Shown: one piece after another, positions 82-46,310 of the stretch
Position numbering within the stretch: position 1 is the stretch's first letter
Layout: every line of letters begins with the position of its first letter
NCBI GenBank assembly: GCA_043808155.1
Contig: JAZDFD010000001.1
Coordinates: forward strand, 1 to 64,000
Reading direction: 5' to 3'
DNA from: Candidatus Iainarchaeum sp.
GTDB taxonomy: Archaea; Iainarchaeota; Iainarchaeia; Iainarchaeales; JAZDFD01
Length of the DNA stretch: 64,000 bases
The notes under the pieces: generated by a model
The model's database searches: none
Seen by the model: only the letters and a program-made list of their open reading frames with translations
What the model was told of the DNA's origin: nothing
Translations under genes and position numbers: made by a program

Positions 82-194
82 TATTACCGCGGGATTTTAA
101 TCCCGCACATATTTCGGAGCCCTATTTCAGCAAAGCTGAAATGGGCACATTTCACACAAAGTGTGAAATCGTGCAACCGTACGAAATCGGTTAG
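82..194 (+). repeat. Composite palindromic repeat (module A plus B/C-type hairpins)
   Basis: TATTAC-CGCGGGATT-TT-AATCCCG-CACATA at 82-111; hairpin ATTTCACAC-AAA-GTGTGAAAT; GCAACCGTACGAAATCGGTTAG resembles 17983-18004. Confidence 0.75.
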
Positions 195-703
195 GCACTG
201 CCCTTGTTATAAGCCAAATCATGAATTTTCTGTTTCAAATCTTCAGTTTCTTCTTCGCGTGATTTATGAGAAAAATCGTTTAATTCTTCCAATCTTGCAA
301 CCCTGTCTTTTAGTGCTTCAAGTTCTATTTTTGTGTTATTCTTTTGATTTATCAGGGAATCTAATTTCTCTTTGATTTTTCCATTTTTTACTTCATCTTT
401 TTCCAAAGTTGCTTTTCCGATTTTTACGATTGCATTTTCCATTGCATCTAATCTTTGGTGTGCCATAATTATTTTTTCATTCAAAGCCTGAGTTGATGCA
501 TCGGGCAAACTTTGGCTATTGAAATTTCTTCCTGGTGGTGACTGCACAGGATACCCTGATTGATCATCACTAGGTTCGAATGTTTGATATGATTCTTCAT
601 TATACGACTCGTCAGTCTTTTTATTAGAAGATTTTGTAACTGCAAGAAATAAATTTCCCAAAACAAGCGCAATTACTACTATGATTAGAAATGTTGTCAG
701 CAA
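191..703 (-). CDS. Membrane-anchored coiled-coil hypothetical protein
   Basis: N-terminal TM helix, low-complexity linker, heptad-rich C-terminus. Confidence 0.7.
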   Translation of the reverse strand: MLTTFLIIVVIALVLGNLFLAVTKSSNKKTDESYNEESYQTFEPSDDQSGYPVQSPPGRNFNSQSLPDASTQALNEKIIMAHQRLDAMENAIVKIGKATLEKDEVKNGKIKEKLDSLINQKNNTKIELEALKDRVARLEELNDFSHKSREEETEDLKQKIHDLAYNKGSA

Positions 704-755
704 ATTTATCCCCTCCCCGTATACAAATAGCGTAGATTATGTTTTTATTTGTTTA

Positions 756-1499
756 CTAGAAATTGAAGAATTTCTTTGCGTTTTCAGTAGTGGTTTCAGC
801 AACATTTTTAAATGGAATTCCCTTAATCTCAGCTATTTTCTCAGCAACCCACTCAATCCAGCGTGATGTTGATTCCTTGCCCTGAAATGAAACAGGGGCA
901 TCAGATTCAAGCATTAAATTTGAGAGAGGAATTTCCTTTACAATTTCCTGAACAGCAATGCTTTGAATTACTGCAGGGCCTACGGAAATAAAATAACCTA
1001 AATCAACTGCTTCTTTAACTTCTTCAATACTATTGGTAAACCAGTGCATTAAAACAGGAGTATTTGCGTGCTGTGTTAAAGTCTGCAGAACTTCTTTTCC
1101 GCAGAAGCGTGAATGCACAACTAATGGTTTTTTTTCAGCACGTGACATTTCAATAAAATCTAAGAAAATATTTTTTTGCAGTTTTTTTTGTTCATCACTT
1201 ACTGCATGTTTGTAATCTAAACCTATTTCGCCAATTGCAACTGCTTTATCTAAATTCTTTCTTACAATTTCTTTTCCTTCTTCAATGTCCGCAGCTGACA
1301 TTCGTAGGATATCACTTGGATGCAAACCCAGACAGATTTTAACTTCAGGGAACATTTCAGGGAGAAGCAGATGTTCCTTTATGGATTTAAGACTCGTAGC
1401 ACAGGAGACCATGTTTGTTACTCCATGATGTTTTGCGTCTTCAACAACCTGTTTTTTATCTTCAAACCAGTCAAGATGGCAGTGTGAATCAATAAGCAT
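756..1499 (-). CDS. tatD: TatD family nuclease
   Basis: DSHCHLD, GLHP, AIGEIGLD, VHSR, HWF and LESDAP motifs. Confidence 0.95.
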   Translation of the reverse strand: MLIDSHCHLDWFEDKKQVVEDAKHHGVTNMVSCATSLKSIKEHLLLPEMFPEVKICLGLHPSDILRMSAADIEEGKEIVRKNLDKAVAIGEIGLDYKHAVSDEQKKLQKNIFLDFIEMSRAEKKPLVVHSRFCGKEVLQTLTQHANTPVLMHWFTNSIEEVKEAVDLGYFISVGPAVIQSIAVQEIVKEIPLSNLMLESDAPVSFQGKESTSRWIEWVAEKIAEIKGIPFKNVAETTTENAKKFFNF

Positions 1500-1646
1500 A
1501 CGGGGATATTAGGCAAAAAAAGTTTTTAATGCTATTTAATTTCATAAACTGGAAAGGAGGGGGGGGCACCTGCATAGATTTTTAAACATTAGACGATTTA
1601 TGATTCATAAGATTGATGAAAACATGCTTAATTAATAAGTGAAAAA

Positions 1647-2381
1647 ATGGAACTTGAAAAAATAACTCATCCTGATGGCCTGTATTATTGGCGATGGATA
1701 AACACAGATTATCTACCTTATGGCTGGCTTGAGGAATCAGAACTTAAAGATCTTCCTGTGCCTTTTCTTATGCTTTATATTCACCCTGACTGCAAAGTGG
1801 GTGTTGTGACAGAGCTGAAAGATGAAATTACAAATATAATTCCACTTACAACTTCTTTTGCAGAACTTAAAATAGATCCTGATTTAAGAAAAGACCTCAG
1901 AAGGATTGAACATAAAAATGAAAATACAAAAATAATATTCAATGAAGAAAACGCATTTGAAAAAAGTCAGAAATGGTTTCTTGACCAATGGAAAGAAGAA
2001 GAAGCAGATTTTGAAAGGCGAAAAATGATATGGCGCAAAGTAGCATATACATTAAGTGCGTATCAGGGAGATCAGCTCTTAGGCGTGCATATTGCAATGG
2101 AAGAAGGCGACACAGTTTATTATCTTGGATGCTGGTGGGACCGAACCTTCAAAAATCTGTCAGTCCCTACTTTTCTTCTAAAAAGGGACATTGAAAAAGC
2201 GATTGATGAGGGGAAAAAGTTTTATGATCTGGGAATAGGGGATGAACCCTACAAAAAACAATGGATGGTTATTGAAAAACCAACAAAATATTATGCAGTA
2301 GTTCCGAAAAAACTTGCGGAAAAATTTGAACTTAAAAAATATCGTGAAGTCAGTCTTGAGGAACTTGAAACACAAAAATGA
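1647..2381 (+). CDS. GNAT/FemAB-like acyltransferase-fold protein
   Basis: C-terminal IEKAIDEGKKFYDLGIGDEPYKKQW signature. Confidence 0.7.
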   Translation: MELEKITHPDGLYYWRWINTDYLPYGWLEESELKDLPVPFLMLYIHPDCKVGVVTELKDEITNIIPLTTSFAELKIDPDLRKDLRRIEHKNENTKIIFNEENAFEKSQKWFLDQWKEEEADFERRKMIWRKVAYTLSAYQGDQLLGVHIAMEEGDTVYYLGCWWDRTFKNLSVPTFLLKRDIEKAIDEGKKFYDLGIGDEPYKKQWMVIEKPTKYYAVVPKKLAEKFELKKYREVSLEELETQK

Positions 2382-2455
2382 TGGAATAACTTAAAAACAT
2401 TTATGTGTTATAATATCAAAGTAAAACTATACTTTTGAAATAAGGTCTTAAAAAC

Positions 2456-4798
2456 ATGGAAACTACAACCGCATTCCCAAAAAATTTTCTTTTTGTTTCA
2501 ATAGATGCTCTAATTTCTGACATCGCGTGGGTTATTTCCCGAGAAGGTCACAATGTAAAATATTATATTGGCTGTCCAGAAGACAAGGAAGTTGCCAATG
2601 GTTTTGTTGAGAAAGTTGATGACTGGGAAAAAGAAGTTGAATGGGCAGATGTGATTGTTTTTGATGATGTACTTGGAGAAGGGACTAAAGCAAAAAAGCT
2701 TCGTGATTCAGGCAAATATGTTATTGGCGGAACACCCTACACTGACCAGCTTGAGGATGACAGAGCGTTTGGGCAGGAAGAACTTAAAAAATACGGAATA
2801 AATATTCTGCCTTATGTGAATTTCACTTCTTTTGGAGATGCAATTGAATATGTGAAGAATCATCCTGACAAATATGTGATAAAGCCCAGCGGAGACGCTG
2901 GAAATATAAAAGGTCTTCTTTTCGTTGGTGAGGAAGACGATGGACGGGATGTAATCCAAGTGCTTAGTGACTATAATAATGCATGGTCAGATAAAATTCA
3001 GATGTTCCAGCTTCAGAAAAAAGTTTCAGGAGTTGAAGTTGCAGTTGGCGCATTTTTCAATGGTAATGAATTCATTTATCCTATCAATGTTAATTTTGAG
3101 CACAAAAAACTTTTTCCAGGAAATTTGGGGCCTTCAACAGGTGAAATGGGATGTTATGATGACCAGACCGAAGTTCTCACAAAACAGGGGTGGAAATATT
3201 TCAGCGAACTTAATTATAATGATGAATTGTGCACATTAAATCCAGACACACATGAAGTTGAGTATCATCTCCCTGACAACATAGTTGAATTTAACCATCA
3301 CAAAAAACTTGTTTCAGTTCAGAACCAGACACTTGATGTAATGGTTACTCTTGACCATAACATGTATGTTGCAAGCCAGAATGATATAAGAAGGGGAATA
3401 GAAAATTTTAAATTTGTTAAAGCAAAAGATTTAGAATATCAGTCTGTGATAAAAAGAACGGGTGCATGGAAAGGAGTCGCAGAGACTGTTTTTGTTCTGC
3501 CTTCAGTGGAAATAGGGCATTACGAAGGAAACCAAGTACAAGTACATAAATCTGCAGAAATAGAAATACCGATAGATCAGTGGGCATCATTTTTTGGTAT
3601 ATGGCTTGCAGACGGTTATACATCAAATAATAAAATAGGTATTGCACAAAAAAAAGAACCAAACACATCTGAAATAAGAAAACTGCTTGAACCAATGCCC
3701 TTTAAGTTTTCTGAAAATGAGAATGAATTTTATATGTACAGCAAACAATTGTCAGATTATTTGGGGCAATTTGGAAAAGCTTATGAAAAATATGTGCCTG
3801 AGTTCATAAAGACGCTTCCCCCTGAAAAAATTGAAATTTTCCTTAACTGGTTTGCACTTGGAGATGCAACAAAAATGAAAAGCGGGCATAGGATTTTTTA
3901 CACGTCTTCCAGAAGAATTGCAGATGACATACAGGAACTTCTTCTTAAATGTGGCAGAGTCGGCATTATAAAAACAAGAAATCCACGAGGGAAAGTATGG
4001 ATAAAAGACCATTATACTGAGTCTTCAAGAGTTCAGTATGAAATACACGAAAGAGTAAAAAAAAGGGATTCATGGATTGACAAAAGAGATATGAAAATAG
4101 TTGATTATGATGGGATTGTTTATTGTGCAACAGTGAAAAATCACATAATGTATGTCAGAAGAAACGGGAAGCCTTACTGGTGTGGTAATACATCAATGTT
4201 CTGGAGCGGACCAAACAAACTTTTTAACCAGACTCTTAAAAAACTTGAAGCAAAACTTGCAGAGGAAAAATATGTGGGTTATATTGACATAAACTGCATT
4301 GTAAATAATCACGGGATTTATCCTTTGGAATTTACTGCAAGATTTGGTTATCCCACAATAAGCATACAGCAAGAAGGAATGATTTCACCTATAGGTGATT
4401 TTTTTTACGCACTTGCGAAAGGTGAAATACCAAAATTCAAAACAAAAAGTGGTTTCCAGATTGGTGTGAGAATTGTTGTTCCGCCTTTTCCTTTCCAGGA
4501 CCCGGAAACATTTGAAGTTAAATCAAAAGATTCAGTAATCTTTTTCAAAAAAACTCAAGAAGGCGTGCACATTGAAGATGTTAAAATTGTAAACGGAGAA
4601 TGGGTTGTTACAGGAACTTCAGGTGTTATTCTTATTGTATGCGGAACCGGCTCCACAATGAAACAGGCACAAGCCCAAGTTTACAGCAGAGTAAAAAATA
4701 TCATGATTCCAAATATGTATTACAGAACAGACATCGGGGACCGATGGTATGAAGACAGTGATAAACTCCACTCATGGGGTTATCTGAGAGAAATGTAA
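2456..4798 (+). CDS. purD: Phosphoribosylamine-glycine ligase-like ATP-grasp protein (PurD-like) with intein
   Basis: EHKKLFPGNLGPSTGEMG, LEFTARFGYP and YYRTDIG PurD motifs; 434-aa extein after intein removal. Confidence 0.85.
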   Translation: METTTAFPKNFLFVSIDALISDIAWVISREGHNVKYYIGCPEDKEVANGFVEKVDDWEKEVEWADVIVFDDVLGEGTKAKKLRDSGKYVIGGTPYTDQLEDDRAFGQEELKKYGINILPYVNFTSFGDAIEYVKNHPDKYVIKPSGDAGNIKGLLFVGEEDDGRDVIQVLSDYNNAWSDKIQMFQLQKKVSGVEVAVGAFFNGNEFIYPINVNFEHKKLFPGNLGPSTGEMGCYDDQTEVLTKQGWKYFSELNYNDELCTLNPDTHEVEYHLPDNIVEFNHHKKLVSVQNQTLDVMVTLDHNMYVASQNDIRRGIENFKFVKAKDLEYQSVIKRTGAWKGVAETVFVLPSVEIGHYEGNQVQVHKSAEIEIPIDQWASFFGIWLADGYTSNNKIGIAQKKEPNTSEIRKLLEPMPFKFSENENEFYMYSKQLSDYLGQFGKAYEKYVPEFIKTLPPEKIEIFLNWFALGDATKMKSGHRIFYTSSRRIADDIQELLLKCGRVGIIKTRNPRGKVWIKDHYTESSRVQYEIHERVKKRDSWIDKRDMKIVDYDGIVYCATVKNHIMYVRRNGKPYWCGNTSMFWSGPNKLFNQTLKKLEAKLAEEKYVGYIDINCIVNNHGIYPLEFTARFGYPTISIQQEGMISPIGDFFYALAKGEIPKFKTKSGFQIGVRIVVPPFPFQDPETFEVKSKDSVIFFKKTQEGVHIEDVKIVNGEWVVTGTSGVILIVCGTGSTMKQAQAQVYSRVKNIMIPNMYYRTDIGDRWYEDSDKLHSWGYLREM
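3152..4189 (+). mobile_element. 346-aa intein with LAGLIDADG endonuclease domain
   Basis: Starts CYDDQTEVLTKQGWK; VTLDHNMYV block B; FGIWLADG and WFALGDA endonuclease blocks; ends YVRRNGKPYWCGN followed by Thr. Confidence 0.92.
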
Positions 4799-4840
4799 AA
4801 TCAGACCATACTTTTAATTCTATTGCCTATAAATTTGTTA

Positions 4841-10243: not shown

Positions 10244-10369
10244 GCGAGCTAAAGCGAGCGTATGGGTTATAGCTCAAGGATATCGCCTTGGCGAGCTAAA
10301 GCGAGCTAGTGTCAGTGCAACTGACACGCGGACTCGCCGGCCGTTCGGCGAGCTCGAGGATATCGCCTT
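10244..10369 (+). repeat. Composite palindromic leader of tRNA-Trp (modules B and C)
   Basis: GTGTCAGT-GCA-ACTGACAC hairpin plus CTCGCCGGCCGTTCGGCGAG; 42 nt identical to the reverse complement of 15171-15212. Confidence 0.85.
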
Positions 10370-10611
10370 GGGGTCATAGTGTAACCTGGTATCACCACAG
10401 GCTCCAGAATTTTTATTTTTGGAGGCGGAGGGCATGTATTGTGCCCAATGACGAATAACAGGTAGGATGAGTCTGCTTTTGCAGGCAGTGACAAAAAATG
10501 TGAGTGCTTAAAGCACGAACAAGTGTCAGTGAAACTGACACGAATTCGCACGCGGAATTTGCCGCGTAGTGGAGTTACCTGTTAATCTGGGTTCAAATCC
10601 CGGTGACCCCA
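10370..10611 (+). tRNA. tRNA-Trp(CCA) with 169-nt intron (10408-10576)
   Basis: GGGGTCA/TGACCCC acceptor, ACAGG/CCTGT anticodon stem, CCA anticodon, BHB at 37/38, GTTCAAATC T-loop. Confidence 0.93.
10415..10494 (+). ncRNA. Intron-encoded box C/D guide RNA
   Basis: ATGACGA at 10448; guide TAACAGGT complementary to 3' exon ACCTGTTA; D-like ATGA at 10467 places D+5 on C39. Confidence 0.7.
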
Positions 10612-10710
10612 CATTTCTTTTTTAGAATATTAATGAGGTATTGAGCGAAATCCGCCAATGGGACATAGAGTGTGCAAAGAACTTTAAGTTAATTGTAATA
10701 TGTGTTAGTT

Positions 10711-14878: not shown

Positions 14879-14913
14879 TATTACCGCACTATCGCACAGC
14901 AATAGTGCACATA
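14879..14913 (+). repeat. Module A palindrome
   Basis: TATTAC-CGCACTAT...ATAGTG-CACATA. Confidence 0.75.
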
Positions 14914-14941
14914 CAGATCTCCACCAGATCTCTCCGGTGTG

Positions 14942-15016
14942 TGGGAGCGCCCGGATTTGAACCGGGGTCGCAAGACCCCCAGCCTTGAATGCTAGACCAG
15001 ACTACACTACGCCCCC
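14942..15016 (-). tRNA. tRNA-Pro(GGG)
   Basis: Cloverleaf GGGGGCG...CAAGG-CT-GGG-GG-TCTTG...GTTCAAATCCGGGCGCTCCCA. Confidence 0.95.
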
Positions 15017-15033: not shown

Positions 15034-15099
15034 TATTACTGCAGGTTCGAATGAAATGAGAATCTGCACATATTCGTACCCGCCGGACGTGACGGCGAA
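15034..15099 (+). repeat. Module A+C palindrome between the two tRNA-Pro genes
   Basis: TATTAC-TGCAGGTTC...GAATCTG-CACATA followed by GTACCCGCCGGACGTGACGGCGAA. Confidence 0.8.
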
Positions 15100-15174
15100 T
15101 GGGACCACCCGGATTTGAACCGGAGTCACAAGCTCCCAAAGCTTGAATGCTAGACCAGACTACACCATGGCCCC
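15100..15174 (-). tRNA. tRNA-Pro(TGG)
   Basis: GGGGCCA...CAAGC-TT-TGG-GA-GCTTG...GGTCCCA. Confidence 0.95.
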
Positions 15175-15258
15175 AAGGCGATATCCTCGAGCTCGCCGAA
15201 CGGCCGGCGAGTGCAGGCACCACTTTCAGTGGCGCTAGCTCACTACGTTCGCTAAGGC
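15175..15258 (-). repeat. Composite palindromic leader of tRNA-Pro(TGG)
   Basis: Homologous to the tRNA-Trp leader; the 38 nt immediately 5' of the tRNA are identical. Confidence 0.85.
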
Positions 15259-16030: not shown

Positions 16031-16092
16031 ATATAAACATTGTTTTTTGTCATTAAAATAGCTTTTTATCGTTTTTTGTGCTTTTAGTATGC

Positions 16093-17928
16093 ATGCAATT
16101 CAGAAAAGTAGCAGAGTATTTTGAGAAAATTGAGAAAGTTTCTTCGCGTTTGGAGATGACTGATTTAGTGAGTGAATTACTCTCGAAAGCTTCAAAATCA
16201 GATATTGCTAATGTGATTTATTTAAGCCAGGGGAAACTTGGTCCTGATTTTTTAAGTTTGGAACCAGGGCTGGGGGAAAAACTTGTTATTGAAGCAATTA
16301 CTAAATTTTCAGGTTATGAGAAAATTGAAATTGAAAAGAAATTTAAAAAACAGGGTGATCTGGGTTTAGTTGCATTTGAACTTGCGGAAAAGAAAAAACA
16401 GCAGAGTTTATTTTCAGAAGAATTAAGTGTTGAAAAAGTTTTCAGGAATTTTGAGAAGATTGCAAATGCAGAAGGCGCTGGGAGTCAGGAATCTAAAATC
16501 AGATTGCTTTCCGAGCTTTTGAATTCTGGATCTGCATTGGAAGCTAAATTTTTAGTTCGGGTTCCGTTGGGAACATTAAGATTAGGAATTGGTGATCCTA
16601 CATTGATGGATGCACTTGCACTGAATTATATTGATGAATTTAAAACAGGAAATAAAAAAGTAGTTTCTGAAATTGAAAAAGAAGTTAAAATAAAAAAAGA
16701 AAAAGAACGGGCAGAGGAAATTTCAAGAAAAATAAAAATGAAAATCCGTGAAGGAATTGAAGCAAAGTATAATGTAATGCCTGATTTAGGAGAAATTGCA
16801 GAAAATCTGAAAGCAAATGGTTTGGCGGGTTTGAAAAAAATAAAAATTAAAATTGGGGTGCCCATAAGACCAACACTGGCGGAAAGACTGCCTAGTGCAG
16901 ATGAAATTCTTAAAAAAATTGGCAAGTGTGCAGTTGAACACAAATATGACGGATTTAGATTTCAGGTTCACAAGAAAAATAATGAAGTTACAATTTTCTC
17001 ACGGAAGCAGGAAAATATGACACACATGTTTCCAGAAATTGTTGAAGGTGTGAGAAAACAAATTTCTGCAAAGGAAGCAATTATTGAGGGCGAAGCACTT
17101 GCATTTGATGAAGAAAAGAAAAGATATTACCCCTTTCAGGTTACAATTCAGAGAAAAAGAAAATATGATATTGACCAGAAAGCAGTTGAATTGCCACTGG
17201 AACTTTTTGTTTTTGATGTGATGTATGTTGATGGAAAAGAAACCATGAGCAAGAAATTTTCTGAAAGAAGAAAAATACTTGAAAAATTGATTAAGAAAGG
17301 GCCAGTAATAAAACCAACTGAAAGTATTATTTCAGAATCAGTTGGAGAAATTGAAACATTCTTTGAAAATGCGATTGCGAAAGGATTGGAAGGAATAATT
17401 GCGAAGGATTTGAATGCACCTTATATTGCAGGTGCGCGAAAGTATGCATGGATTAAGCTGAAGAAATCATATTCTGACAAAATGACGGATTCAGTTGATG
17501 TTGTTATAATTGGTTATGACAAAGGCAAGGGGCAGAGAACTAAATTTGGTTTGGGAAATTTGCTGACAGCATCATATGATGAGGAAAGCGATATGTTTAA
17601 TTCGGTTGCAAGAATTGGAACAGGAATTACTGAAGAAAGATTAAAAGAATTAGAAGAAATGCTAAGCAAAACTAAGGTTTCTTCAAAACCAGCGCGTGTA
17701 AATTCCGAAATTAAGCCAGATGTGTGGGTTGAACCAAAATATGTTATTGAAGTTATTGCAGATGAAGTTACGCAAAGCCCCCTGCATATGTGTGCGTTTG
17801 ATAAAAAAGAAAAAACAGGTCTCGCACTGAGATTTCCCAGAATGGTTTCATTTAGAGTTGATAAATCACCTGAAGAAGCAACAACGGATTTTGAAATTAT
17901 GAAAATGTACAAACAGCAAACGAAGTAA
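16093..17928 (+). CDS. lig: ATP-dependent DNA ligase
   Basis: EHKYDGFR, EGIIAK, WIKLK and LRFPR motifs. Confidence 0.97.
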   Translation: MQFRKVAEYFEKIEKVSSRLEMTDLVSELLSKASKSDIANVIYLSQGKLGPDFLSLEPGLGEKLVIEAITKFSGYEKIEIEKKFKKQGDLGLVAFELAEKKKQQSLFSEELSVEKVFRNFEKIANAEGAGSQESKIRLLSELLNSGSALEAKFLVRVPLGTLRLGIGDPTLMDALALNYIDEFKTGNKKVVSEIEKEVKIKKEKERAEEISRKIKMKIREGIEAKYNVMPDLGEIAENLKANGLAGLKKIKIKIGVPIRPTLAERLPSADEILKKIGKCAVEHKYDGFRFQVHKKNNEVTIFSRKQENMTHMFPEIVEGVRKQISAKEAIIEGEALAFDEEKKRYYPFQVTIQRKRKYDIDQKAVELPLELFVFDVMYVDGKETMSKKFSERRKILEKLIKKGPVIKPTESIISESVGEIETFFENAIAKGLEGIIAKDLNAPYIAGARKYAWIKLKKSYSDKMTDSVDVVIIGYDKGKGQRTKFGLGNLLTASYDEESDMFNSVARIGTGITEERLKELEEMLSKTKVSSKPARVNSEIKPDVWVEPKYVIEVIADEVTQSPLHMCAFDKKEKTGLALRFPRMVSFRVDKSPEEATTDFEIMKMYKQQTK

Positions 17929-17936: not shown

Positions 17937-18004
17937 TATTACCGTGGCATTGAGCAAAACGAAATGCCACACATAAATCGGAGCACCCGTACGAAATCGG
18001 GTAG
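17937..18004 (+). repeat. Module A+C palindrome
   Basis: TATTAC-CGTGGCATT...AATGCCA-CACATA; GCACCCGTACGAAATCGGGTAG. Confidence 0.8.
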
Positions 18005-18012: not shown

Positions 18013-18720
18013 ATGACTGAGTTATTGTATCTGAGTGATTCTTATCTGAAAAAATTTGAAGCACAAGTTGTTAGTGTAACTGATGGAAAATTTGTGGTTT
18101 TGGATAAATGCGCATTTTATCCGGAAAGCGGAGGGCAACCTTCAGATACGGGTTATCTGGAAAAAGATGGAAATAAAATGAATGTAATTTTTGCAAAGAA
18201 AATGGGTGAGAATATTTCACTTCAGGTTGAAGATTGCAATTTGAAAGAAGGTGACAAGGTAAAGTGTGCAATTGACTGGGATAGAAGATACAGATTTATG
18301 AGAATGCACACTGCAGCACATATTTTGAGTGCAATAATTTTCAAAGAGCTTGGCTGTTTGATTACAGGAAACCAATTAGGAGAAGAAAAAAGCAGAATGG
18401 ATTTTAATGTTGAAGATTTTGACAGAGAGTTATTAATTTCATTTGAAAAAAAAGCAAATGAAATTATAAAAAGAAATTTAGAGGTTGAAGTGTCTTATAT
18501 GTCCGCAGAAGAGGCATTCAAAAATGAACAATTATTCCGGCTTAAGGATGTTCTTCCTAAAAATCTGAAAGAGCTCCGCATTGTAAAAATCGGGGATTTT
18601 GATATTCAGGCTGACGGTGGAACCCATGTGAAGAACACGTCTGAAATTGGGTCTGTTAAAATCACTAAAATTGGAAATAAAGGCACAAACAACAGAAGGA
18701 TTTATTTTATACTGGAATAG
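18013..18720 (+). CDS. alaX: Alanyl-tRNA editing protein AlaX-M
   Basis: FYPESGGQPSD, HTAAH and ADGGTH motifs. Confidence 0.93.
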   Translation: MTELLYLSDSYLKKFEAQVVSVTDGKFVVLDKCAFYPESGGQPSDTGYLEKDGNKMNVIFAKKMGENISLQVEDCNLKEGDKVKCAIDWDRRYRFMRMHTAAHILSAIIFKELGCLITGNQLGEEKSRMDFNVEDFDRELLISFEKKANEIIKRNLEVEVSYMSAEEAFKNEQLFRLKDVLPKNLKELRIVKIGDFDIQADGGTHVKNTSEIGSVKITKIGNKGTNNRRIYFILE

Positions 18721-18771: not shown

Positions 18772-20256
18772 ATGGATTCAGTGATGAGACTACTTGTTGT
18801 TGCAATTGCTGCTGCTGCTCTTATTGCAGTAATCTATCTGATGTTTGTTGTTCCTGCAGACGACCCAGGACAGCTTATAAAAAAACAGCTTGAAACTGCA
18901 CAGGTTGAGCTTGGTAAAATTCAGCAGATTCAGATACTGGAATATACTGAAAATTATGCTATGCAGGGTGAGCTTTTTGATGACCGTGGAAGGTCAGTTG
19001 CATTTGAATGCAATAATGAAAATCTTTGCTGCATAAAAGGTGAAAAATGCGGAGAAATTGAATGGGATGAAAGATTGATTGCATTCAAGAAAAAGCGGCC
19101 TGTAGAAACAATTTCAAGATGTTTTTTAGAAGAAGGTATTTTTGTTTGCAGAGTTTATTTTGGTAAAGGGCCAGCACAAGTTGAAATTACAGAAGTTGTT
19201 ACAGAAGACACTTTAGATTTGAGTCAGAGAACTGCATTTCCTGTTTCTGTGAAAATTAAAAATTCAGGAAATTCAATTATGACCTATGGTTCAATTGAAA
19301 TGAAACTTTATCAATGGCAGACACAGTTTGAAAACTCAAAACTTATTTTTATTACACAAGAATCACAGCCTCTTACAGTAATGAACCCTGGTAATGAATT
19401 CACAAGAGACTTTACTTTTAATCCAGAAACAAGCGGAGAATATGAAATTCATATAAGAGCAGAGGGGGAAAACGCAGGTTTCTGGGAGAAAACAATTGAA
19501 TTTAATGTGACTGGAATTCCAGCAAGCGACTGCTCAACAATTGATGATGAAGGCGAAATTGTTTGTGATCCGCAAACAAATAAAATAAAGGAAAAATACT
19601 ATTGCGATAAATGCGAGTTTGGATTTGAATGTGAAAAGTTATGGGAAGCCCAAACTGGTTTAACTTTAGAAACGGGTGACAAAAGTTTTACTTATTACTT
19701 AACTAATGATGATTGCCCAGATCCTAATGCAGAACCAGATTTTATTATTCCCAGCGGATCTGCGGGACAGTTAGCGTGGCCTACTCCGGGGATTACGAGA
19801 GTCGGGTCTTGTTTTGGTAATCGTATGCTGTCGGGCAGACCTGACTGGCATGACGGAATTGACATAAGTGCACCTTCAGGAACTCCTGTTTTTACAATGG
19901 CACCAGGCATAGTTTTCAGGATTGGCACAGGTTATAATGCAGGCTTTGGAAATTCAATTGTAATTAAACACAGTGACACGCTTTTCACAGCATATAATCA
20001 TTTGAGAGACGGGGGAATATTAGTTTCACCAGGTGAAACAGTTGTTGCGGGTCAGCAAATTGGAGTAAGCGGAAACACAGGCCTTTCAACAGGAGCGCAC
20101 TTAGACATTAAAGTTTACACTTCAGCGGATAAAGTTTGGCGCGGGGATACGGGGGTTAATCCTTTGTGTTATTTCCCCGCAAGTATCACTTCGGGTCTTG
20201 ATTTGGCTGGAGCCAGCTGTCAGACCCATAGTCCTTATGACGGCTGTAGCTCATAA
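18772..20256 (+). CDS. Membrane-anchored protein with Ig-like domain and C-terminal M23 peptidase
   Basis: N-terminal TM; HDGID, YNHL and GNTGLSTGAHL M23 motifs. Confidence 0.9.
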   Translation: MDSVMRLLVVAIAAAALIAVIYLMFVVPADDPGQLIKKQLETAQVELGKIQQIQILEYTENYAMQGELFDDRGRSVAFECNNENLCCIKGEKCGEIEWDERLIAFKKKRPVETISRCFLEEGIFVCRVYFGKGPAQVEITEVVTEDTLDLSQRTAFPVSVKIKNSGNSIMTYGSIEMKLYQWQTQFENSKLIFITQESQPLTVMNPGNEFTRDFTFNPETSGEYEIHIRAEGENAGFWEKTIEFNVTGIPASDCSTIDDEGEIVCDPQTNKIKEKYYCDKCEFGFECEKLWEAQTGLTLETGDKSFTYYLTNDDCPDPNAEPDFIIPSGSAGQLAWPTPGITRVGSCFGNRMLSGRPDWHDGIDISAPSGTPVFTMAPGIVFRIGTGYNAGFGNSIVIKHSDTLFTAYNHLRDGGILVSPGETVVAGQQIGVSGNTGLSTGAHLDIKVYTSADKVWRGDTGVNPLCYFPASITSGLDLAGASCQTHSPYDGCSS

Positions 20257-28154: not shown

Positions 28155-28340
28155 TATTACTGTCTTATCGGAGATAGGACACATATGCTCACGCAAGGGA
28201 CTCCGTCCCTTTGCAAACCCTGAAACTTTTTAATAGAATATTACTGCGGGGTTGAAAACCCCGCATATATGTTCACAATCGGAACGCCGATTAGCCCCGA
28301 GGAGTTCCACACATAGGGGCAACTACGTTTCCCCCTATTA
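28155..28340 (+). repeat. Cluster of palindromes: two module A copies, a C-type hairpin and a displaced tRNA-Gln 3' end
   Basis: TATTAC...CACATA at 28155-28185; TATTAC...CATATA at 28239-28269; TAGCCCCGAGGAG at 28292-28304 equals 28371-28383. Confidence 0.8.
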
Positions 28341-28370
28341 CCCCCTTCCTTTAATTATTAATAAAAAAGA

Positions 28371-28443
28371 TAGCCCCGAGGAGATTCGAACTCCTGTCAC
28401 CGGGTCCAAAGCCCAGCATCCTTGGCCACTAGACTACGGGGCT
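28371..28443 (-). tRNA. tRNA-Gln(TTG)
   Basis: AGCCCCG...CTGGG-CT-TTG-GA-CCCGG...GTTCGAATCTCCTCGGGGCTA. Confidence 0.95.
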
Positions 28444-28469
28444 AGTTTAAAGGAACTTAATAATTAGCT

Positions 28470-37791: not shown

Positions 37792-39285
37792 ATGGGATTT
37801 GATGATTCACGATTTGATATGTATGATAATGTAGGTTCCAGAAATGAAGATTATGATGCAGAACCTAGCCAGATAGATGCTGTGAAGCAGTATTTGCCAA
37901 AAATTGTCATTGCTATTGTTGTTCTTGCAGTTGCATATTTTGCCTATGATTATTTTATTGGAAGCGTGACTGAAGTTAGTTTTGATATTGAAAATACAGA
38001 AGGCAACAAAATAAACAGCACAATTTTAGTTTATGATTCTCAGAATAATGAAGCATATAACAGTTCTTCAGGTAATAAAGCAAATTTGAGATTTGGAGAT
38101 TACACTTACGAAGTTACTGCAAACGGTTATAAACAAGAGATGGGTGATTTCACAATAAGTGCAAATAATAAATCTGTTAAAATTGAAATAGAAAAAGATA
38201 TGGATATTGAATTTGGTGCTGTTTCCTTTGCAGGGGGTTTGAGTCTTACAAGTCCTTTGCAGGGAACTGTTGAACTCAAAAATAATGATTCTGAAACTCA
38301 TGCAGTTGAGCTTGTTTTTGAAGGTGATTTTGATGAATATGATGTTATCATATTTCCTTCAACTGCATCTGTCCCTGGAAACGGGAACTCCATAGTTAAT
38401 GTTACTGCAACTCCAAAAGAAGGGACTGAAATTAAAAAAAGCAGTGGTGATTCTAAAAAAGGAACTATAAGAGTCAAATATTTAAACAGTGAGAAAGCTA
38501 TACACGAAGTTAATTTCAAACTTTATAAAGAAACTGAGATTGATACTCCTTCTAAAGTTACACTTAGTGTGAAATATAATGATTCAGACAATAAAAATGT
38601 GAAAATAGAAAATGATAATGATTTTGAAATAAAGAATGTTAAACTCGAACTTGATATTTTAGGTTCAACAATTAATGACACAGATGACATTTTAAGCTGG
38701 ATTTCATTTCCTTATGGTTCGGAAATAGATTCAATCCCTGCAAAAGGAGAACATGAATTTAAAATTCAGATTGATACACCACTTGATGCAAAAAAAGAAG
38801 ACATTGAAGCACAGATACGCGTAACATCAGCCTCAACAGATGAAACAATTACAATTGAACTCAGTATTAAAATTACTGATGAAGCTGAAACCGCACTTGA
38901 AGTTTCAATCAGTTCAAGCGCGCAAAATATTGAAATTGAATGGGACATAGAATCAGAGAAATTTGAAAAAGTTGAAAAATACAATCTTGAAATTGATAAC
39001 AAAGGCGACGTAACTATTTCAGAGATTCAGATTTCTGTTAAAAACAATGCAGAATGCATTACTTCCTGGTTAAGTATTTTATCACCTGCTGTTGGCACTC
39101 TCACTGCAGGCGATGATACTGAAGTTCCAATCACAATTTCTGCACCAAACGCAGTTTATGGGAAAGAAGCAAATTCTATTTCATGTGAGTTTGAAATTTC
39201 ATATGATGACCCCTTTGGTGGACCGCGTATAAAACAGGCGGTTCCCCAAAACATCCAAATAACTGCAAACTGGGAGGATGTGTAA
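37792..39285 (+). CDS. Membrane-anchored acidic Ig-repeat surface protein
   Basis: TM near N-terminus; repeated beta-rich domains. Confidence 0.7.
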   Translation: MGFDDSRFDMYDNVGSRNEDYDAEPSQIDAVKQYLPKIVIAIVVLAVAYFAYDYFIGSVTEVSFDIENTEGNKINSTILVYDSQNNEAYNSSSGNKANLRFGDYTYEVTANGYKQEMGDFTISANNKSVKIEIEKDMDIEFGAVSFAGGLSLTSPLQGTVELKNNDSETHAVELVFEGDFDEYDVIIFPSTASVPGNGNSIVNVTATPKEGTEIKKSSGDSKKGTIRVKYLNSEKAIHEVNFKLYKETEIDTPSKVTLSVKYNDSDNKNVKIENDNDFEIKNVKLELDILGSTINDTDDILSWISFPYGSEIDSIPAKGEHEFKIQIDTPLDAKKEDIEAQIRVTSASTDETITIELSIKITDEAETALEVSISSSAQNIEIEWDIESEKFEKVEKYNLEIDNKGDVTISEIQISVKNNAECITSWLSILSPAVGTLTAGDDTEVPITISAPNAVYGKEANSISCEFEISYDDPFGGPRIKQAVPQNIQITANWEDV

Positions 39286-39288
39286 ATA

Positions 39289-39735
39289 ATGACTATGACA
39301 CATTCAGATTTGTTTGGCAAGAAAATAGTTATTAGGAGTTTTTTTGTTACGCCCTTGATTTTTTTATTTATTGTTTTAGTAATGAGTTCTAATCCCAGCT
39401 TTGGAAATATAAGCGACATACAAAAAGCTGTGCTCCCATTTATTGCAATAACGTTTGCATTAGTGGGAATTATATCTAATGTTTTTGCTAGATTTACACT
39501 TGAGCAACAATTAAAAAATACAGAACAGGATTTTCCAATACTACTAATAATGATGACTTTTTCAGAAATACCAGTAATTTTAGGTTTGATTCTTACAATA
39601 CTGCTTGAAGAAATAATATACTTCTTTGGATTTTTTGTTTTAACATATTTACTAATGTTATGGAATTTCGGTCTTGTAAAAAACTGGGAACAGAAGATGC
39701 AAGAAGACCAAGACCAAACGGGGATGTATGCATAG
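39289..39735 (+). CDS. Membrane protein
   Basis: Four hydrophobic segments. Confidence 0.6.
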   Translation: MTMTHSDLFGKKIVIRSFFVTPLIFLFIVLVMSSNPSFGNISDIQKAVLPFIAITFALVGIISNVFARFTLEQQLKNTEQDFPILLIMMTFSEIPVILGLILTILLEEIIYFFGFFVLTYLLMLWNFGLVKNWEQKMQEDQDQTGMYA

Positions 39736-40644: not shown

Positions 40645-40716
40645 AGCCCCTGGGGAGATTCGAACTCCCGATCCCTTGTTTACGAAACAAGTGCTTTACC
40701 ACTAAGCCACAGAGGC
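40645..40716 (-). tRNA. tRNA-Thr(CGT)
   Basis: GCCTCTG...CTTGT-TT-CGT-AA-ACAAG...GTTCGAATCTCCCCAGGGGCT. Confidence 0.95.
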
Positions 40717-40759: not shown

Positions 40760-40825
40760 TATTACCGTGGGATTGAACAAAGTGAAATCCCACATATATT
40801 CGCACTCGCCGGGCGCGACGGCGAA
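40760..40825 (+). repeat. Module A+C palindrome
   Basis: TATTAC-CGTGGGATT...AATCC-CACATA; GCACTCGCCGGGCGCGACGGCGAA. Confidence 0.8.
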
Positions 40826-42316
40826 TTAAAGCGTTTTGTATTCTGCTTTTCCAATTTTTAATTTCCAGAGAGTTTCAGGGAGTTCCTGAATTTTGATTCT
40901 TTTCTGTTCCATTGAGTCACGCTCACGTAAGGTAACAGTTCCTTTCTCTAAAGTATCATAATCTAAAGTAATTGCATAGGGAGTTCCAATTTCATCAGCA
41001 CGCGCGTATCTTTTGCCTATGCTCCCTTTGTCATCGAAGAAAGCATCAAACTCAAAGTCAGAGAGTTCTTTGTAAAGGCTTTCTGCTTTTTCTTTTAACC
41101 CGTCTTTTTTCACTAATGGGAAAACAGCAACAAAGAAAGGTGCAACTCTTGCAGGGAGTTTCAAATATGTTCTTTCTTCAGGTCCTCGCTTTTCTTTTCT
41201 GAAGCCATGGTCTAAAACAACATATAATGTTCTGTCAATTCCTGCTGAAAGTTCAAAAACATGCGGGATGAATTTTTTTCCGTCTTCATTTACTGAAAGA
41301 TCTTTTTTGCTTTCTTTTGAATGGGATTTTAAATCATAATCTGTTCTGTAATTGCATGCCATTAATTCAATCCAACCCAAATCAGTTTCAACTTCAAAAT
41401 CCCAGGTTTCTTTTGCATAAAATGCTCTTGCTTCTTTTGCCAGTTCTCTGAAACGCATTGCTTTTACTGGGATGCCATATTTTTCAAACAACTGCTGAAC
41501 CCTTGTAATATAATAAGCAACTAATTTTCCTGAAACAATTTTTTTAGAAACTGCGTCTTTGCAGGAGATTGGATTCATTTTTTTCCCGATAAGCATTAAA
41601 TTGATTTTGTAATTTTCAACGTCATCAAAATTTTCAACTTCATTTATTTTATCAGGATTGAAGAAAATCTCTGCTTCGAATTGTCCGATTTCACGTTCTC
41701 TGATTAAACTCTGCCTTGGAGATATTTCATTTCTGAATGAAGTTCCTGCCTGTGCAATCCCAAAAGGCAAATTCAGGCGCATTGTTTTGTAAAGTCTGCT
41801 AAAATCCAAAAAAATACTCTGGCAGGTTTCAGGTCTCAAATAACATGGGTTTTGTCCTGTTGCACCAATTTCAGTTTTCATCATCATATTGAAGCGTTTG
41901 ACTTTTCCTAATACGCCTTTGCATTTTGTACATTTGATATTGTTCTTTTCAATAAGTTCTGTGAACTTTTCATCAGCCATGCTTTCAGGGAGCGATTCTT
42001 TTGTTTTTTCTTCAATCAGTTTATCTGCTCTGAAGTGTGAATGGCATTTTAAGCACTGAACAATAGGGTCATCGAAATTCTCTAAATGACCCGAAGCTTT
42101 GAAAACTGCTTCAGGCATAATCTGAGCTCCGTAAATTTCAAGCATATTTTCTTTCTGCACTAATTCTTTTCTCCAGAGTTCAATTATTTTTCGTCTCAGA
42201 GATTCTCCTACTGGTCCGAAGTCCCAAAAACCAGAAGGTGCATTTGGATAAATGTCTGCTGACGGATAGAAAATTGATCTCCTCAAAGCTAAATTTACGA
42301 TTTCTTCTTGTGGCAT
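40826..42316 (-). CDS. glyS: Glycine--tRNA ligase (alpha2 type)
   Basis: LRPETCQ, FRNEISPR and GSIGKRYARADEIGTP motifs. Confidence 0.96.
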   Translation of the reverse strand: MPQEEIVNLALRRSIFYPSADIYPNAPSGFWDFGPVGESLRRKIIELWRKELVQKENMLEIYGAQIMPEAVFKASGHLENFDDPIVQCLKCHSHFRADKLIEEKTKESLPESMADEKFTELIEKNNIKCTKCKGVLGKVKRFNMMMKTEIGATGQNPCYLRPETCQSIFLDFSRLYKTMRLNLPFGIAQAGTSFRNEISPRQSLIREREIGQFEAEIFFNPDKINEVENFDDVENYKINLMLIGKKMNPISCKDAVSKKIVSGKLVAYYITRVQQLFEKYGIPVKAMRFRELAKEARAFYAKETWDFEVETDLGWIELMACNYRTDYDLKSHSKESKKDLSVNEDGKKFIPHVFELSAGIDRTLYVVLDHGFRKEKRGPEERTYLKLPARVAPFFVAVFPLVKKDGLKEKAESLYKELSDFEFDAFFDDKGSIGKRYARADEIGTPYAITLDYDTLEKGTVTLRERDSMEQKRIKIQELPETLWKLKIGKAEYKTL

Positions 42317-42499
42317 TGTTCTCACTTCTAAATATCAACTCAAAAAGAATTTATAAATATGTTTATGCCAAATTTTTTTCAAAAAAATACTTTTAAATAC
42401 TAGTTAGGACTTTCTTTAAATTAAGATATAGTAGAGTGCAATGATGGCTTGCATAGTTTAGCATTTCTGATTATGTCAAAAACTAGGGGGGTTTGACCC

Positions 42500-42749: not shown

Positions 42750-42824
42750 ATGAAATGCTTTTTAGAAAATGATCTCTACATGTCGGATGATGATGAAGAA
42801 TACAGCGATGAAGAAGATTATTAA
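42750..42824 (+). CDS. 24-aa acidic micropeptide
   Basis: MKCFLENDLYMSDDDEEYSDEEDY preceded by GGGGGGA. Confidence 0.45.
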   Translation: MKCFLENDLYMSDDDEEYSDEEDY

Positions 42825-42908
42825 GATGCAGATGAATGATTGCTCTGAAAATCTTTGCCCTATTTCTTTTTTTATTTTTTATTATTTTAGCAGTTTATTG
42901 TTTGCGGG

Positions 42909-43448
42909 TTAGGCATTCTTTAAATAGACGACTAAATTCCTTGTCAGAGTTTTAACTGAAGAAACATGTCGGGACATTTCTTTGTTTAATTGTGGGTCCA
43001 AAAATGGACTTATAATTAAAATTGAAAATGAAACTGAAACTATGTGCAGTAAAGTGAATGGAATCTGCATTATCAAAGTCACAATAAATGGCTGATTAAA
43101 CATAAATGAACTCATTATCGGGCCAGTTATAAAATCAAATATTAATACTGCAACTGCTCCCGAGCCAAGAAATAATTTCATAGTAGATTCTTTGTTTTTA
43201 AGGAAAAAATGGAAAAGCATTATTACTGCAGAATATGTGAGGCTTGTTACCAACGTCCACAACCCCAAATGACCTGTAATTATATCAAAAGAAAACATTA
43301 CTGCAAACGCAAACAACGCACCTTTCCACCATGGTTCGTTTTTTGCAGCAGGAAGTGCAAATCCCATTATCGGATCTGAATTAGGGAAAATTCTGAAAAA
43401 TCTGTAAAAATTTGTTAAAATCGCACCAAATAAATATTTGAATTTCAT
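42909..43448 (-). CDS. Membrane protein, ECF S-component-like
   Basis: Five to six TM segments; RIFPNSDP and IPFTLLH motifs. Confidence 0.6.
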   Translation of the reverse strand: MKFKYLFGAILTNFYRFFRIFPNSDPIMGFALPAAKNEPWWKGALFAFAVMFSFDIITGHLGLWTLVTSLTYSAVIMLFHFFLKNKESTMKLFLGSGAVAVLIFDFITGPIMSSFMFNQPFIVTLIMQIPFTLLHIVSVSFSILIISPFLDPQLNKEMSRHVSSVKTLTRNLVVYLKNA

Positions 43449-43506
43449 TTAATCACACCACATATATATCTGAAAAGACTTTATAAAAGTGTCTTTAATA
43501 TAATAT

Positions 43507-44538: not shown

Positions 44539-44546
44539 GTGTTTTT

Positions 44547-45209
44547 TTGAAGGAGATTTTCCCTGGAATTTATCTTATCAATGGGAAGTTGGCTACTTTA
44601 AACTCAGTTCCCGGAAATAAAGTTTATGGTGAACAGTTAGTTTCAGTTAAAGATCAGGAATTTCGTATTTGGGACCCCTACAGATCAAAATTAGCAGCTG
44701 CGATTAAAAAAAATCTAAAAACTGTCCCTTTGAAAAAAGATTTCAAAGTTTTATATTTGGGGAGTGCAGAAGGTACAACTGTTTCTCATGTTGCTGAGAG
44801 TGTTGGTGATAAAGGGCTGGTTTTTGGTGTTGAGTTTAGTGAAAGAACTATGAGGAAATTTATTGACATCTGTGAATCGCGTTCAAATATAATTCCGATT
44901 TTAGCAGATGCTAACAAACCAGACTCATATTCGGAATATTTAGAAGGTCAGGGCATTGATTTGCTTTATCAGGATATTGCACAGAAAAATCAGGCAGAAA
45001 TTTTCAATAAAAATGCAAAAATGTTTCTGAAAAAAGGCTCTTTTGGAATGATTGCAATCAAAGCGCGTTCCATAAGCCAGAAAAAAAATATAAAAGAAAT
45101 ATTTGACACAGAGATTGCTGAAATTGAAAAAGAATTTAAAATAATTGAAAGTGTTCCTTTAGCTCCATTTGAGAAAGAACATTTATTTGTTGTTTGCCAA
45201 AAAAAGTAA
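44547..45209 (+). CDS. flpA: Fibrillarin-like 2'-O-methyltransferase
   Basis: WDPYRSKLAA, VLYLGSAEGTTVSH and YQDIAQ motifs. Confidence 0.96.
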   Translation: MKEIFPGIYLINGKLATLNSVPGNKVYGEQLVSVKDQEFRIWDPYRSKLAAAIKKNLKTVPLKKDFKVLYLGSAEGTTVSHVAESVGDKGLVFGVEFSERTMRKFIDICESRSNIIPILADANKPDSYSEYLEGQGIDLLYQDIAQKNQAEIFNKNAKMFLKKGSFGMIAIKARSISQKKNIKEIFDTEIAEIEKEFKIIESVPLAPFEKEHLFVVCQKK

Positions 45210-45231
45210 GATTTTTAAATTAGTGATTATA

Positions 45232-45798
45232 ATGATTTCAGAAGTTAGAAGAAAATTTATTCACATTGGAATTGGCTCTGTCTTTGTACTGATGGTTTTC
45301 TTTTTAGGAACTATTAATTCATTAATGATTTTATTTCCAATTTATATTATTGGTCTAATTAGTTCATTTTTGATTTTAAAGGGAGTTAGAATTCCATTTG
45401 CTCATGCCTTACTTGATGATGTGCAAAGAACAGATGAAAAGCATCTCCCGGGAAAAGGAGCGCTTTATTTTTTCCTTGGTGCAAATTTAGTTTTAGCTTT
45501 ATTTTGGTGGAATCAGTTATTTGTTTTAGCAGCTCTTTGTACTGTTGTTTTCGGAGATGGTTTTGCAACAATGGTTGGAATTAAGTTTGGTAAACACACA
45601 TTAATTAGCGGAAAAAGTGTTGAAGGAACTCTTGCATGCATTATTGCGTGTGTAATTTTTCTTCATGTTTTATTTCCGTTCAGTATTTACAGAATTGGAT
45701 TTACTGCATTTGTTGCAACTGCAGTTGAACTTCTTCCATTAAATGACAATTTAGGGATGCCATTAGCAACAGCAGCAACATTATTATTGTTAATTTAA
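45232..45798 (+). CDS. Dolichol/phytol kinase family membrane protein
   Basis: RKFIH, GDGFA, KSVEG and NDN motifs. Confidence 0.88.
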   Translation: MISEVRRKFIHIGIGSVFVLMVFFLGTINSLMILFPIYIIGLISSFLILKGVRIPFAHALLDDVQRTDEKHLPGKGALYFFLGANLVLALFWWNQLFVLAALCTVVFGDGFATMVGIKFGKHTLISGKSVEGTLACIIACVIFLHVLFPFSIYRIGFTAFVATAVELLPLNDNLGMPLATAATLLLLI

Positions 45799-45818
45799 GA
45801 TAAAGTATGTGATGTCAG

Positions 45819-45859
45819 TGCCACTTTAGTGGCACCCGTACTAGCCGGACGTGACGGCG
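45819..45859 (+). repeat. Module B+C palindrome abutting tRNA-Arg
   Basis: GTGCCACT-TT-AGTGGCAC followed by GTACTAGCCGGACGTGACGGC. Confidence 0.8.
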
Positions 45860-45860
45860 T

Positions 45861-46001
45861 GGGCCTGTGGCGCAACGGATAGCGCAGCTGCCTCCTAACG
45901 GACAGATCCGTTAACGATCTGTATGTGCGGGGTTTTCAACCCCGCGATAATAATACGTGGGAGCGAGCAGAAGGTTGAGAGTTCGATTCTCTCCGGGCCC
46001 G
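45861..46001 (+). tRNA. tRNA-Arg(CCT) with 68-nt intron (45898-45965)
   Basis: GGGCCTG/CGGGCCC acceptor; CT-CCT-A then intron; GGAG-CG^A BHB half; GTTCGATTC T-loop. Confidence 0.9.
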
Positions 46002-46027
46002 ATATTCATTTTTTGTAATTTTAGAAA

Positions 46028-46310
46028 TATTACTGCACTGTTGTGCAAAACAATAGTGCACATATCGCACTAGCCGGGCGTTCGGCTTTCGATTCTCTCC
46101 GGGCCCGCCTTTTTAAAAAAAGGCAGGTTGCAACTTAAACCAATGAGGTTTAAGTGCACACTGAAACCAAAGTTTCAGTTGTGCCAAAAAGGCAAATCCT
46201 TTGGGATTTGCACATCTATTTTTTCAAAACAACTTTTATTAACAACCGAGCCCAAGCGAGATGTGCCACTGCAAGTGGCACTCGTACTAGCCGGACGTGA
46301 CGGCTTAAGC
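46028..46310 (+). repeat. Palindrome cluster with displaced tRNA-Arg 3' end
   Basis: Module A at 46028-46064, module C, TTCGATTCTCTCCGGGCCCG at 46088-46107 equals 45982-46001, further hairpins, B+C at 46263-46304. Confidence 0.8.

Follow-up and report, generated by a model that had tools for sequence, protein, structure and literature searches.

A gene-less hairpin and pseudoknot repeat, likely mobile, at the tRNA genes of Candidatus Iainarchaeum sp.

Could an element without any gene of its own move as a folded single strand of DNA and leave the scars of a retroposon? In the 64,000-nucleotide stretch analysed here (the window, that is, positions 1 to 64,000 of contig JAZDFD010000001.1, assembly GCA_043808155.1, from the archaeon Candidatus Iainarchaeum sp.), nine copies of a short repeat, termed family A, fold in the DNA-type manner of single-strand transposons and bear insertion scars like those of retroposons, two features that we know to occur together in no other family. 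The combination points to an enzyme acting beside tRNA genes, where it would join single-stranded DNA that is structured. Family A is likely mobile, and the reading that we favour, which we hold to be about evenly poised between right and wrong, is that of a mobile element without genes, which travels as single-stranded DNA and would be copied in, pseudoknot end first, by an enzyme whose gene lies elsewhere. It is favoured because the fold points to single-stranded DNA and the scars point to a precise 3' junction and a repair-made 5' junction.

The element may also show how archaeal tRNA introns arise. A census of Asgard tRNAs, as excerpted, identified no general route by which tRNA introns arrive (bioRxiv 10.64898/2026.10.13.758758). 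Here, a defined and countable element is found in five of the 12 intron-containing tRNA genes of one genome. Its antisense copies in introns end at the splice site, and therefore intron gain or growth becomes testable; if the reading is true, a route of intron gain could be traced. In addition, a streamlined genome of 1 Mb is seen to tolerate about 80 repeats.

Fold, copy number and tRNA proximity

All nine repeat copies of the initial annotation were recovered where it had placed them, and a loop-blind pattern, TATTAYYGYN{12,32}RCAYATA, matches the window nine times, exactly at these copies, and not once in any of 100 dinucleotide shuffles. The hairpin unit described earlier is real; it is, however, only the 5' half of the element, and each copy runs on for about 22-30 nt into a pseudoknot. 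The full copies are as follows.

82..192, + strand: first family A copy; hairpin at 82-111, pseudoknot at 112-192 split by a two-hairpin module at about 122-172
14879..14939, + strand: family A copy whose pseudoknot end adjoins tRNA-Pro(GGG) 14941-15016(-) at its 3' end, antisense
15034..15097, + strand: family A copy whose pseudoknot end adjoins tRNA-Pro(TGG) 15099-15175(-) at its 3' end, antisense
17937..18002, + strand: family A copy between a DNA ligase gene (16078-17928) and an AlaX-like gene (18013-18720)
28155..28238, + strand: first member of a direct tandem pair, a family A hairpin whose 3' module is a variant
28239..28292, + strand: family A copy, second of the tandem pair
40760..40824, + strand: family A copy, 44 nt upstream of tRNA-Thr(CGT) 40645-40716(-)
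45896..45952, - strand: family A copy in the tRNA-Arg(CCT) intron; pseudoknot end at the 37/38 splice site
46028..46087, + strand: family A copy; pseudoknot end joins T54 of a duplicated tRNA-Arg 3' end

The unit of about 60-70 nt reads N-TAT-TAYY-(8-bp stem and loop)-AC-ATA-N' and is followed by a second module, the pseudoknot. It thus comprises a 4-bp helix at the base, an internal loop (TAYY/AC), an 8-bp stem that covaries and, on the 3' side, an H-type pseudoknot; the 5' and 3' ends of the element are unrelated to each other. The fixed flanks TATTAC and CACATA hold for most window copies, the exceptions being the copy at 28239, which ends in CATATA, and that at 45922, which starts with TATTAT. 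These flanks had been described as conserved and non-palindromic; the conservation stands, but the second term is too simple, since N-TAT and ATA-N' are paired with each other and covariation extends to the outer -1/+1 pair (of 87 copies, 69 are Watson-Crick there and 3 more are G.T). The TA of the TAYY foot is invariant (89/89).

That the stems vary while their pairing is kept was borne out by 34 distinct genome copies, with 261 Watson-Crick, 9 G.T and 2 A.C cells out of 272. Absence of covariation above shuffled DNA, or a match to the ends of a known insertion sequence (IS), had been named as what would speak against the repeat. In 30 triloop copies, picked from about 100 and including three rows without the +1 base, 98.3% of the cells pair, both partners vary in 8 of 12 pairs, and the covariation score is 0.661, compared with 0.225 after shuffling (0/500 shuffles reached it) and at most 0.157 for slid registers. 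No match to known IS ends was found, and a search of the window against Rfam at the gathering threshold returned six tRNA matches only and none to the repeat.

The pseudoknot occupies the 22-30 nt after CACATA, where the linker pairs with the loop of the second hairpin. A pseudoknot score of at least 20 is reached by 80 of 103 copies, compared with 13 of 309 mononucleotide shuffles, and the stem-1 pairings are again diverse, with 44 different ones among 83 (for example TCG/CGA, GGA/TCC, TGCG/CGCA and CAGA/TCTG). Further modules insert into the pseudoknot loop, as at 122-172 in the window. The module at that site consists of two hairpins, TATTTC...GAAATG repeats with AAA loops, and similar modules are found on contigs C13, C14 and C35 and in genome G012.

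Across the whole genome (1.08 Mb in 35 contigs, 88% complete), a nucleotide hidden Markov model gave 41 family A loci after merging, partial and interrupted ones included; a pattern similar to that used for the window gave 29 matches, compared with 1 in the reversed control. A sister family, termed family B, has 42 loci, in which a different GNA hairpin stands ahead of the same pseudoknots. The family B copies in the window are listed below.

10294..10351, + strand: family B copy with a 21-nt flanking duplication, upstream of tRNA-Trp
10505..10567, + strand: family B copy inside the 169-nt intron of tRNA-Trp(CCA) 10370-10612
15193..15249, - strand: family B copy upstream of tRNA-Pro(TGG)
45816..45858, + strand: family B copy ending 2 nt before G1 of tRNA-Arg(CCT)
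46253..46305, + strand: family B copy

Note that the tRNA-Trp(CCA) gene at 10370-10612 is missed by the default tRNA call and found with an intron search. A GC-rich hairpin region at 62736-62796 has a high pseudoknot score on the minus strand and belongs to neither family A nor family B.

The neighbours of family A are housekeeping genes and tRNAs. Seven of the nine family A copies had been placed within about 220 bp of a tRNA; indeed, seven lie no more than 184 nt away, the nearest-tRNA distances being 10259, 28, 18, 2762, 184, 100, 44, 26 and 0 nt in the order of the copies. The statistical test that had been proposed agrees: 19 of the 41 genome loci are within 100 nt of a tRNA, as against 7.8% of sampled positions outside open reading frames (ORFs) (p ~4e-11). 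Counted from the other side, a copy of family A or B lies no more than 250 nt from 29 of the 45 tRNA genes.

Such proximity would also suit a host signal, that is, a site for protein binding or processing which is kept at tRNA and operon junctions and which gene conversion or repair has spread. This explanation could draw, too, on the orthologous tRNA-Glu intron of a relative, which holds a copy with a different stem, and therefore the fold was kept or replaced in place. On the other hand, copies stand in both orientations with respect to transcription, duplications flank young copies, a close relative lacks one copy (see below) and 200 of 215 phylum genomes are without a true match. We regard a host signal as highly improbable.

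Among these 215 genomes, which are incomplete and whose kin are not independent, 26 match the pattern and 15 have true stems as judged by eye. The carriers include this genome (30 matches), all six members of family f16 (1-27 each), G018 (5) and G043 (2), and single family A copies are found in G147, G154, G169, G176, G037 and G012. The spread is thus patchy, with single copies in distant families. Repeat-carrying titled records in the databases are labelled Candidatus Iainarchaeum or unclassified archaeon; three of 31 database matches, those with non-Iainarchaeum titles, have no stems and were rejected as chance. Viral contigs gave no match to the strict pattern or to the pseudoknot pattern, and their loose-pattern loci have no paired stem; one viral match to the sister-family pattern was set aside as a chance coding hit. 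Plasmids gave no match to the repeat.

Insertion sites, tRNA introns and flanking duplications

The pseudoknot end is the end that touches the target, and it lies at tRNA G1, at position 73-75, at the 37/38 splice site, at T54 or at a ribosome-binding site. Of the antisense calls, 23 were judged real by eye, and 21 of these end between -3 and +4 nt of tRNA position 72; a further six rows were discarded, being chance folds in AT-rich DNA or miscalls. Of the sense rows, 22 were considered real, and 19 of these have their end no more than 3 nt from G1, most of them being sister-family copies. It should be noted that both counts are conditional, as they cover 40-48 nt around each tRNA. In operons, the pseudoknot end lies just before the ribosome-binding site; for example, the 17937 copy ends just before a GGTGG ribosome-binding site. 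The pseudoknot end of the 40760 copy faces the stop codon of a class II synthetase gene, 40826-42325(-), away from the tRNA. Just after the 28239 copy, positions 28293-28304 are a 12-nt copy of the antisense 3' end of tRNA-Gln 28369-28444(-). The adjoining stretch 28305-28345 is a hairpin that has CACATA to its left and TATTAC to its right, which is the family A order permuted; it lies between the two copies of the tRNA-Gln 3' end.

Some copies lie within tRNA genes. ARAGORN reports 12 intron-containing tRNA genes in this genome, four of which hold family A and one the sister family. In the antisense intron copies (three here and four in relatives), the pseudoknot end is within 2 nt of the 37/38 splice site. 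The window contains one such gene:

45860..46002, + strand: tRNA-Arg(CCT) with a 68-nt intron at 45898-45965

The copy noted earlier as inverted at 45922-45952 is present, and its location turns out to be this intron, of which the full copy at 45896-45952 makes up about 55 of 68 nt. Five tRNA-Arg(CCT) genes of relatives have no intron or unrelated introns. The precursor is predicted to keep a bulge-helix-bulge-like pairing around the anticodon.

The same gene has a flanking duplication of its 3' end, a perfect one of 20 bp:

45982..46001, + strand: left copy, tRNA positions 54-73, followed by 26 nt of AT-rich filler
46088..46107, + strand: right copy, starting at the pseudoknot end of the 46028 copy

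Sister-family copies likewise join at T54 of duplicated 3' ends in tRNA-Gly and tRNA-Glu. Beyond the right copy, the minus strand of 46108-46211 is a multi-hairpin, pseudoknot-scoring mosaic that abuts the duplicated tRNA-Arg 3' end; a related mosaic adjoins tRNA-Arg in G086, a genome without family A. The superfamily probably extends beyond family A.

Of 97 copies, 11 have direct duplications that start from the pseudoknot end and score at least 30, whereas among 471 mismatched controls the number is 4; lowering the cut-off to 24 gives 15 and 7. All 15 start within 3 nt of the pseudoknot end, in a search that allowed offsets of -3 to +3, and 10 of them within 1 nt. The duplications are 13-46 nt long, differ in sequence from site to site and often have AT-rich filler before TATTAC; the 3' flank has no consensus beyond T or A at its first base. 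At the 5' junction, a 39-nt duplication runs into the TAT of TATTAC at locus L287 (G018, contig C1, near 248860), and the junction may accordingly use N-TAT microhomology or a target-derived N-TAT. At locus L288 (G018, contig C4, near 39152-39290), the filler 5' of a tandem pair includes a short piece of the downstream target in inverted form, which hints that a polymerase switched templates at the 5' junction.

Mobility is also indicated by differences between strains. In a related strain (run X2), a contig joins 17915 to 18005 via 21 other letters, so that the 17937 copy is absent, and in another contig of a related strain the sister copy at 15193 is replaced by other letters. Nested and tandem mosaics of copies and the patchy spread among genomes also speak for mobility.

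The folded strand and the mobilising enzyme

Which strand folds, and is it DNA or RNA? On the TATTAC strand, the defects of 89 stems comprise 16 G.T cells as against 5 A.C cells, and the TATTAC strand is likely the folded one because G.T outnumber A.C defects; pairing is, in other words, likely conserved on that strand only. With the loop-blind pattern, every one of the 12 triloops of this genome is GNA, and GA-NN-NNA-NN-GA is the usual reading of the longer loops. A d(GNA) loop with a sheared G.A pair is described as an unusually stable DNA motif in the excerpt of PMC3201870. The fold thus suggests that single-stranded DNA is the recognised form, and the initial view of a structure-recognised repeat is supported to that extent: the repeat is structure-conserved, strand-specific and has DNA-type loops. 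Of the 22 family A loci with a tRNA label, 16 have the folded strand antisense to the transcript of the tRNA. In this genome, the folded strand is the G-rich one at 20 of 25 scorable family A loci (p=0.004 versus one half); the corresponding counts are 386 of 674 for genes, 16 of 30 for tRNAs and 19 of 27 for the sister family. With replication direction taken from GC3 (third codon position) skew, the G-rich strand is the presumed lagging-strand template.

The mechanism that we favour would run as follows. The invariant internal loop and the pseudoknot would be the recognition sites of the enzyme on single-stranded DNA. Where a tRNA, or another GC-rich structured stretch, has a nick or a free 3'-OH at its edge, this would be joined to the pseudoknot end, or would prime copying from it, giving the precise 3' junction. 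Host repair would close the other end, with one of three outcomes: a variable-length duplication, a deletion or the capture of a 5' flank. Selection would then keep the inserts that leave the tRNA or gene usable, that is, those at tRNA ends and in spliceable introns, as well as those whose duplication rebuilds a tRNA 3' end or start signal. Two candidate enzymes would both fit, a divergent single-strand nuclease-ligase and a template-jumping DNA polymerase. More tentatively, family A could represent a new class of transposable element: gene-less and single-stranded, with a pseudoknot as the entry point for target-primed, DNA-templated copying, homing to tRNA ends and building spliceable introns. 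In that class, the copying might be done by an enzyme other than the known ones or by host enzymes alone. We hold the proposal of a new class to be less likely than not.

Several observations weigh against the single-stranded DNA element. A clear duplication is found in only about one ninth of the copies, and two or three of the 11 are tandem arrays. The empty site is one contig, at a depth of about 4, from a diverged strain. Folding programs give both strands nearly equal energies, and GNA counts for loci found with patterns that themselves required GNA are circular and were not used. The strand bias was not seen again in short loci from other genomes (6 of 11, a count of low power), and therefore only this genome lends it support. 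To within a few nucleotides, the junctions agree with the ends of mature tRNAs and of exons, which fits an RNA-level process equally well. Finally, no gene family recurs beside the copies, and no enzyme was found in the searches described below.

An RNA-level process would make family A resemble a short interspersed nuclear element (SINE). That is, the TATTAC strand would be transcribed, and a reverse transcriptase would grip the 3' pseudoknot and either copy it at a nick in the target, by target-primed reverse transcription, or jump onto it from tRNA ends. The precise 3' end, variable 5' end and variable-length duplications match this geometry, the junctions at G1, 73-75 and 37/38 are ends of processed tRNA molecules, and several pseudoknots end on a G that coincides with tRNA G1. 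However, the loops belong to the GNA type of DNA, and the strand that folds is mostly the one antisense to the transcribed tRNA. In addition, reverse transcriptases do not track the repeat: RVT_1 is found in 27 of 215 phylum genomes, namely 2 of the 15 carriers and 25 of the other 200, with none in the six genomes of the richest family and no association, and a motif scan of the ORFs of this genome gave one match, which reads like a non-coding frame. We therefore consider a SINE-like RNA element unlikely.

A further explanation, close to the initial annotation, is an element of the repetitive extragenic palindrome (REP) or palindrome-associated transposable element (PATE) kind, moved by a Y1 HUH transposase, with TAYY at the hairpin foot as its guide and IS200 TnpA or an undetected RAYT as the enzyme that would excise and reinsert the single strand. 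The single-strand hairpin, fixed 5' foot tetranucleotide and G-started loop are as in the REPs of the excerpted PMC8266576, the tandem and nested mosaics recall the bacterial interspersed mosaic elements (BIMEs) of PMC3333891 (excerpt), and the lagging-template bias in this genome and the IS200 TnpA of five of 15 carriers fit as well. Nevertheless, PF01797 (Y1 HUH) is absent from this genome, at its 88% completeness, and from 10 of 15 carriers overall, among them a 99% complete one that has a single copy with a decayed pseudoknot. A RAYT or IS200-like HUH gene flanked by the repeat, which had been suggested as a check, was not seen: the five carriers with PF01797 have IS200-type genes, with the Y---Q motif of IS200 where readable, and no repeat in the fetched flanks. 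Duplications are present, the 3' junction has no fixed target motif, and only the IS200 subclass was seen in archaea in a survey of 172 archaeal genomes, as excerpted (PMC6006769). Y1 HUH transfer is, in our estimate, quite unlikely. The narrower proposal of a REP served by RAYT is not supported, given the lack of a GTAG foot and of a RAYT gene and the flanking duplications with a precise 3' end.

Other searches for the mobilising enzyme of the favoured single-stranded DNA element were likewise negative. Y2_Tnp and Rep_1 match in none of 11 carriers, the Rep_1 negative being weak as its control matched nowhere, and REP_ORF2-G2P gave nothing over the cut-off in 11 carriers and two matches below it. 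A HUH motif scan of the ORFs of this genome returned nothing convincing, and the only tyrosine integrase common to five genomes searched is XerA-like. Two solo TnpB genes without a tnpA partner (loci L036 and L037, at G000:C23:24537-25823 and G000:C7:8169-9410) do not carry the repeat. As the initial annotation had supposed, no mobilising gene is encoded in the window; the mobiliser may lie in unassembled DNA or on a transient element. LAGLIDADG proteins were rejected as a candidate: they are found in all five carriers searched, mostly as long intein-bearing frames, and are not discriminating in a set made up of carriers only. Separately, a purD-like gene at 2456-4798 in the window has a LAGLIDADG domain in its middle, and the contigs of relatives skip about 3121-4316; this segment is likely an intein. 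The genes of the window are archaeal in character. At 18772-20256 there is an M23 peptidase gene, of a family that usually cuts peptidoglycan.

Comparison with known systems

No description of the element was found in the literature searched, with subscription papers outside its coverage. Family A is like the bacterial REP, BIME and REPIN (paired REP) sequences, as these appear in excerpts of PMC8266576, PMC3333891 and PMC6006769, in being a short multi-copy extragenic hairpin that folds as a single strand and has a fixed 5' tetranucleotide; the mosaics and tandem arrays of BIMEs are a further likeness (PMC3333891, excerpt). The REP feature of a multi-copy extragenic palindrome of 20-40 nt is found here, at 41 loci. 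The GTAG guide tetranucleotide at the 5' foot is another REP feature in the excerpted PMC8266576. By contrast, the foot of family A is TAYY, its flanks are conserved and mutually paired, and a pseudoknot follows at the 3' side. It occurs as singlets or direct tandems, has flanking duplications and targets tRNA ends, and no RAYT gene was found.

With the IS200/IS605 elements and PATEs, family A shares a strand-specific fold of single-stranded DNA and two structured modules; a bias to the presumed lagging-strand template is seen in this genome, at 20 of 25 loci, and the count elsewhere is 6 of 11. IS200/IS605-type transfer is not known to make target duplications; family A has them, and it has no fixed target tetranucleotide at the 3' junction. 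No likeness was found to the ends of the two solo TnpB elements here or to the IS200 loci of relatives. A MITE (a class II miniature transposon with inverted repeats) was rejected as well, because the ends are unrelated, terminal inverted repeats are lacking and the duplication lengths vary (13-46 nt). We also dropped a likeness of TATTAC to the nick sites of CRESS (circular Rep-encoding single-stranded DNA) viruses and to loop B of the hairpin ribozyme, as the partner strand is at odds with these.

SINEs and other target-primed retroposons have, like family A, a precise structured 3' end, a variable 5' end and variable duplications, and are non-autonomous. Family A differs in its DNA-type loops, in a folded strand that is often not the transcribed one, and in having neither poly(A) nor a reverse transcriptase that tracks it. 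The tRNA-targeting integrative elements of the SSV1 and pNOB8 types, according to the excerpted PMC3293823, also insert at the T-loop and duplicate the tRNA 3' end, and have been proposed there as a route to tRNA intron gain. Family A, however, is 60-100 nt long, has no linked integrase and no shared att core, and uses many different targets, including non-tRNA sites. Each of these five types, that is, REP, IS200/IS605, SINE, MITE and integrative element, has a defining test that family A fails.

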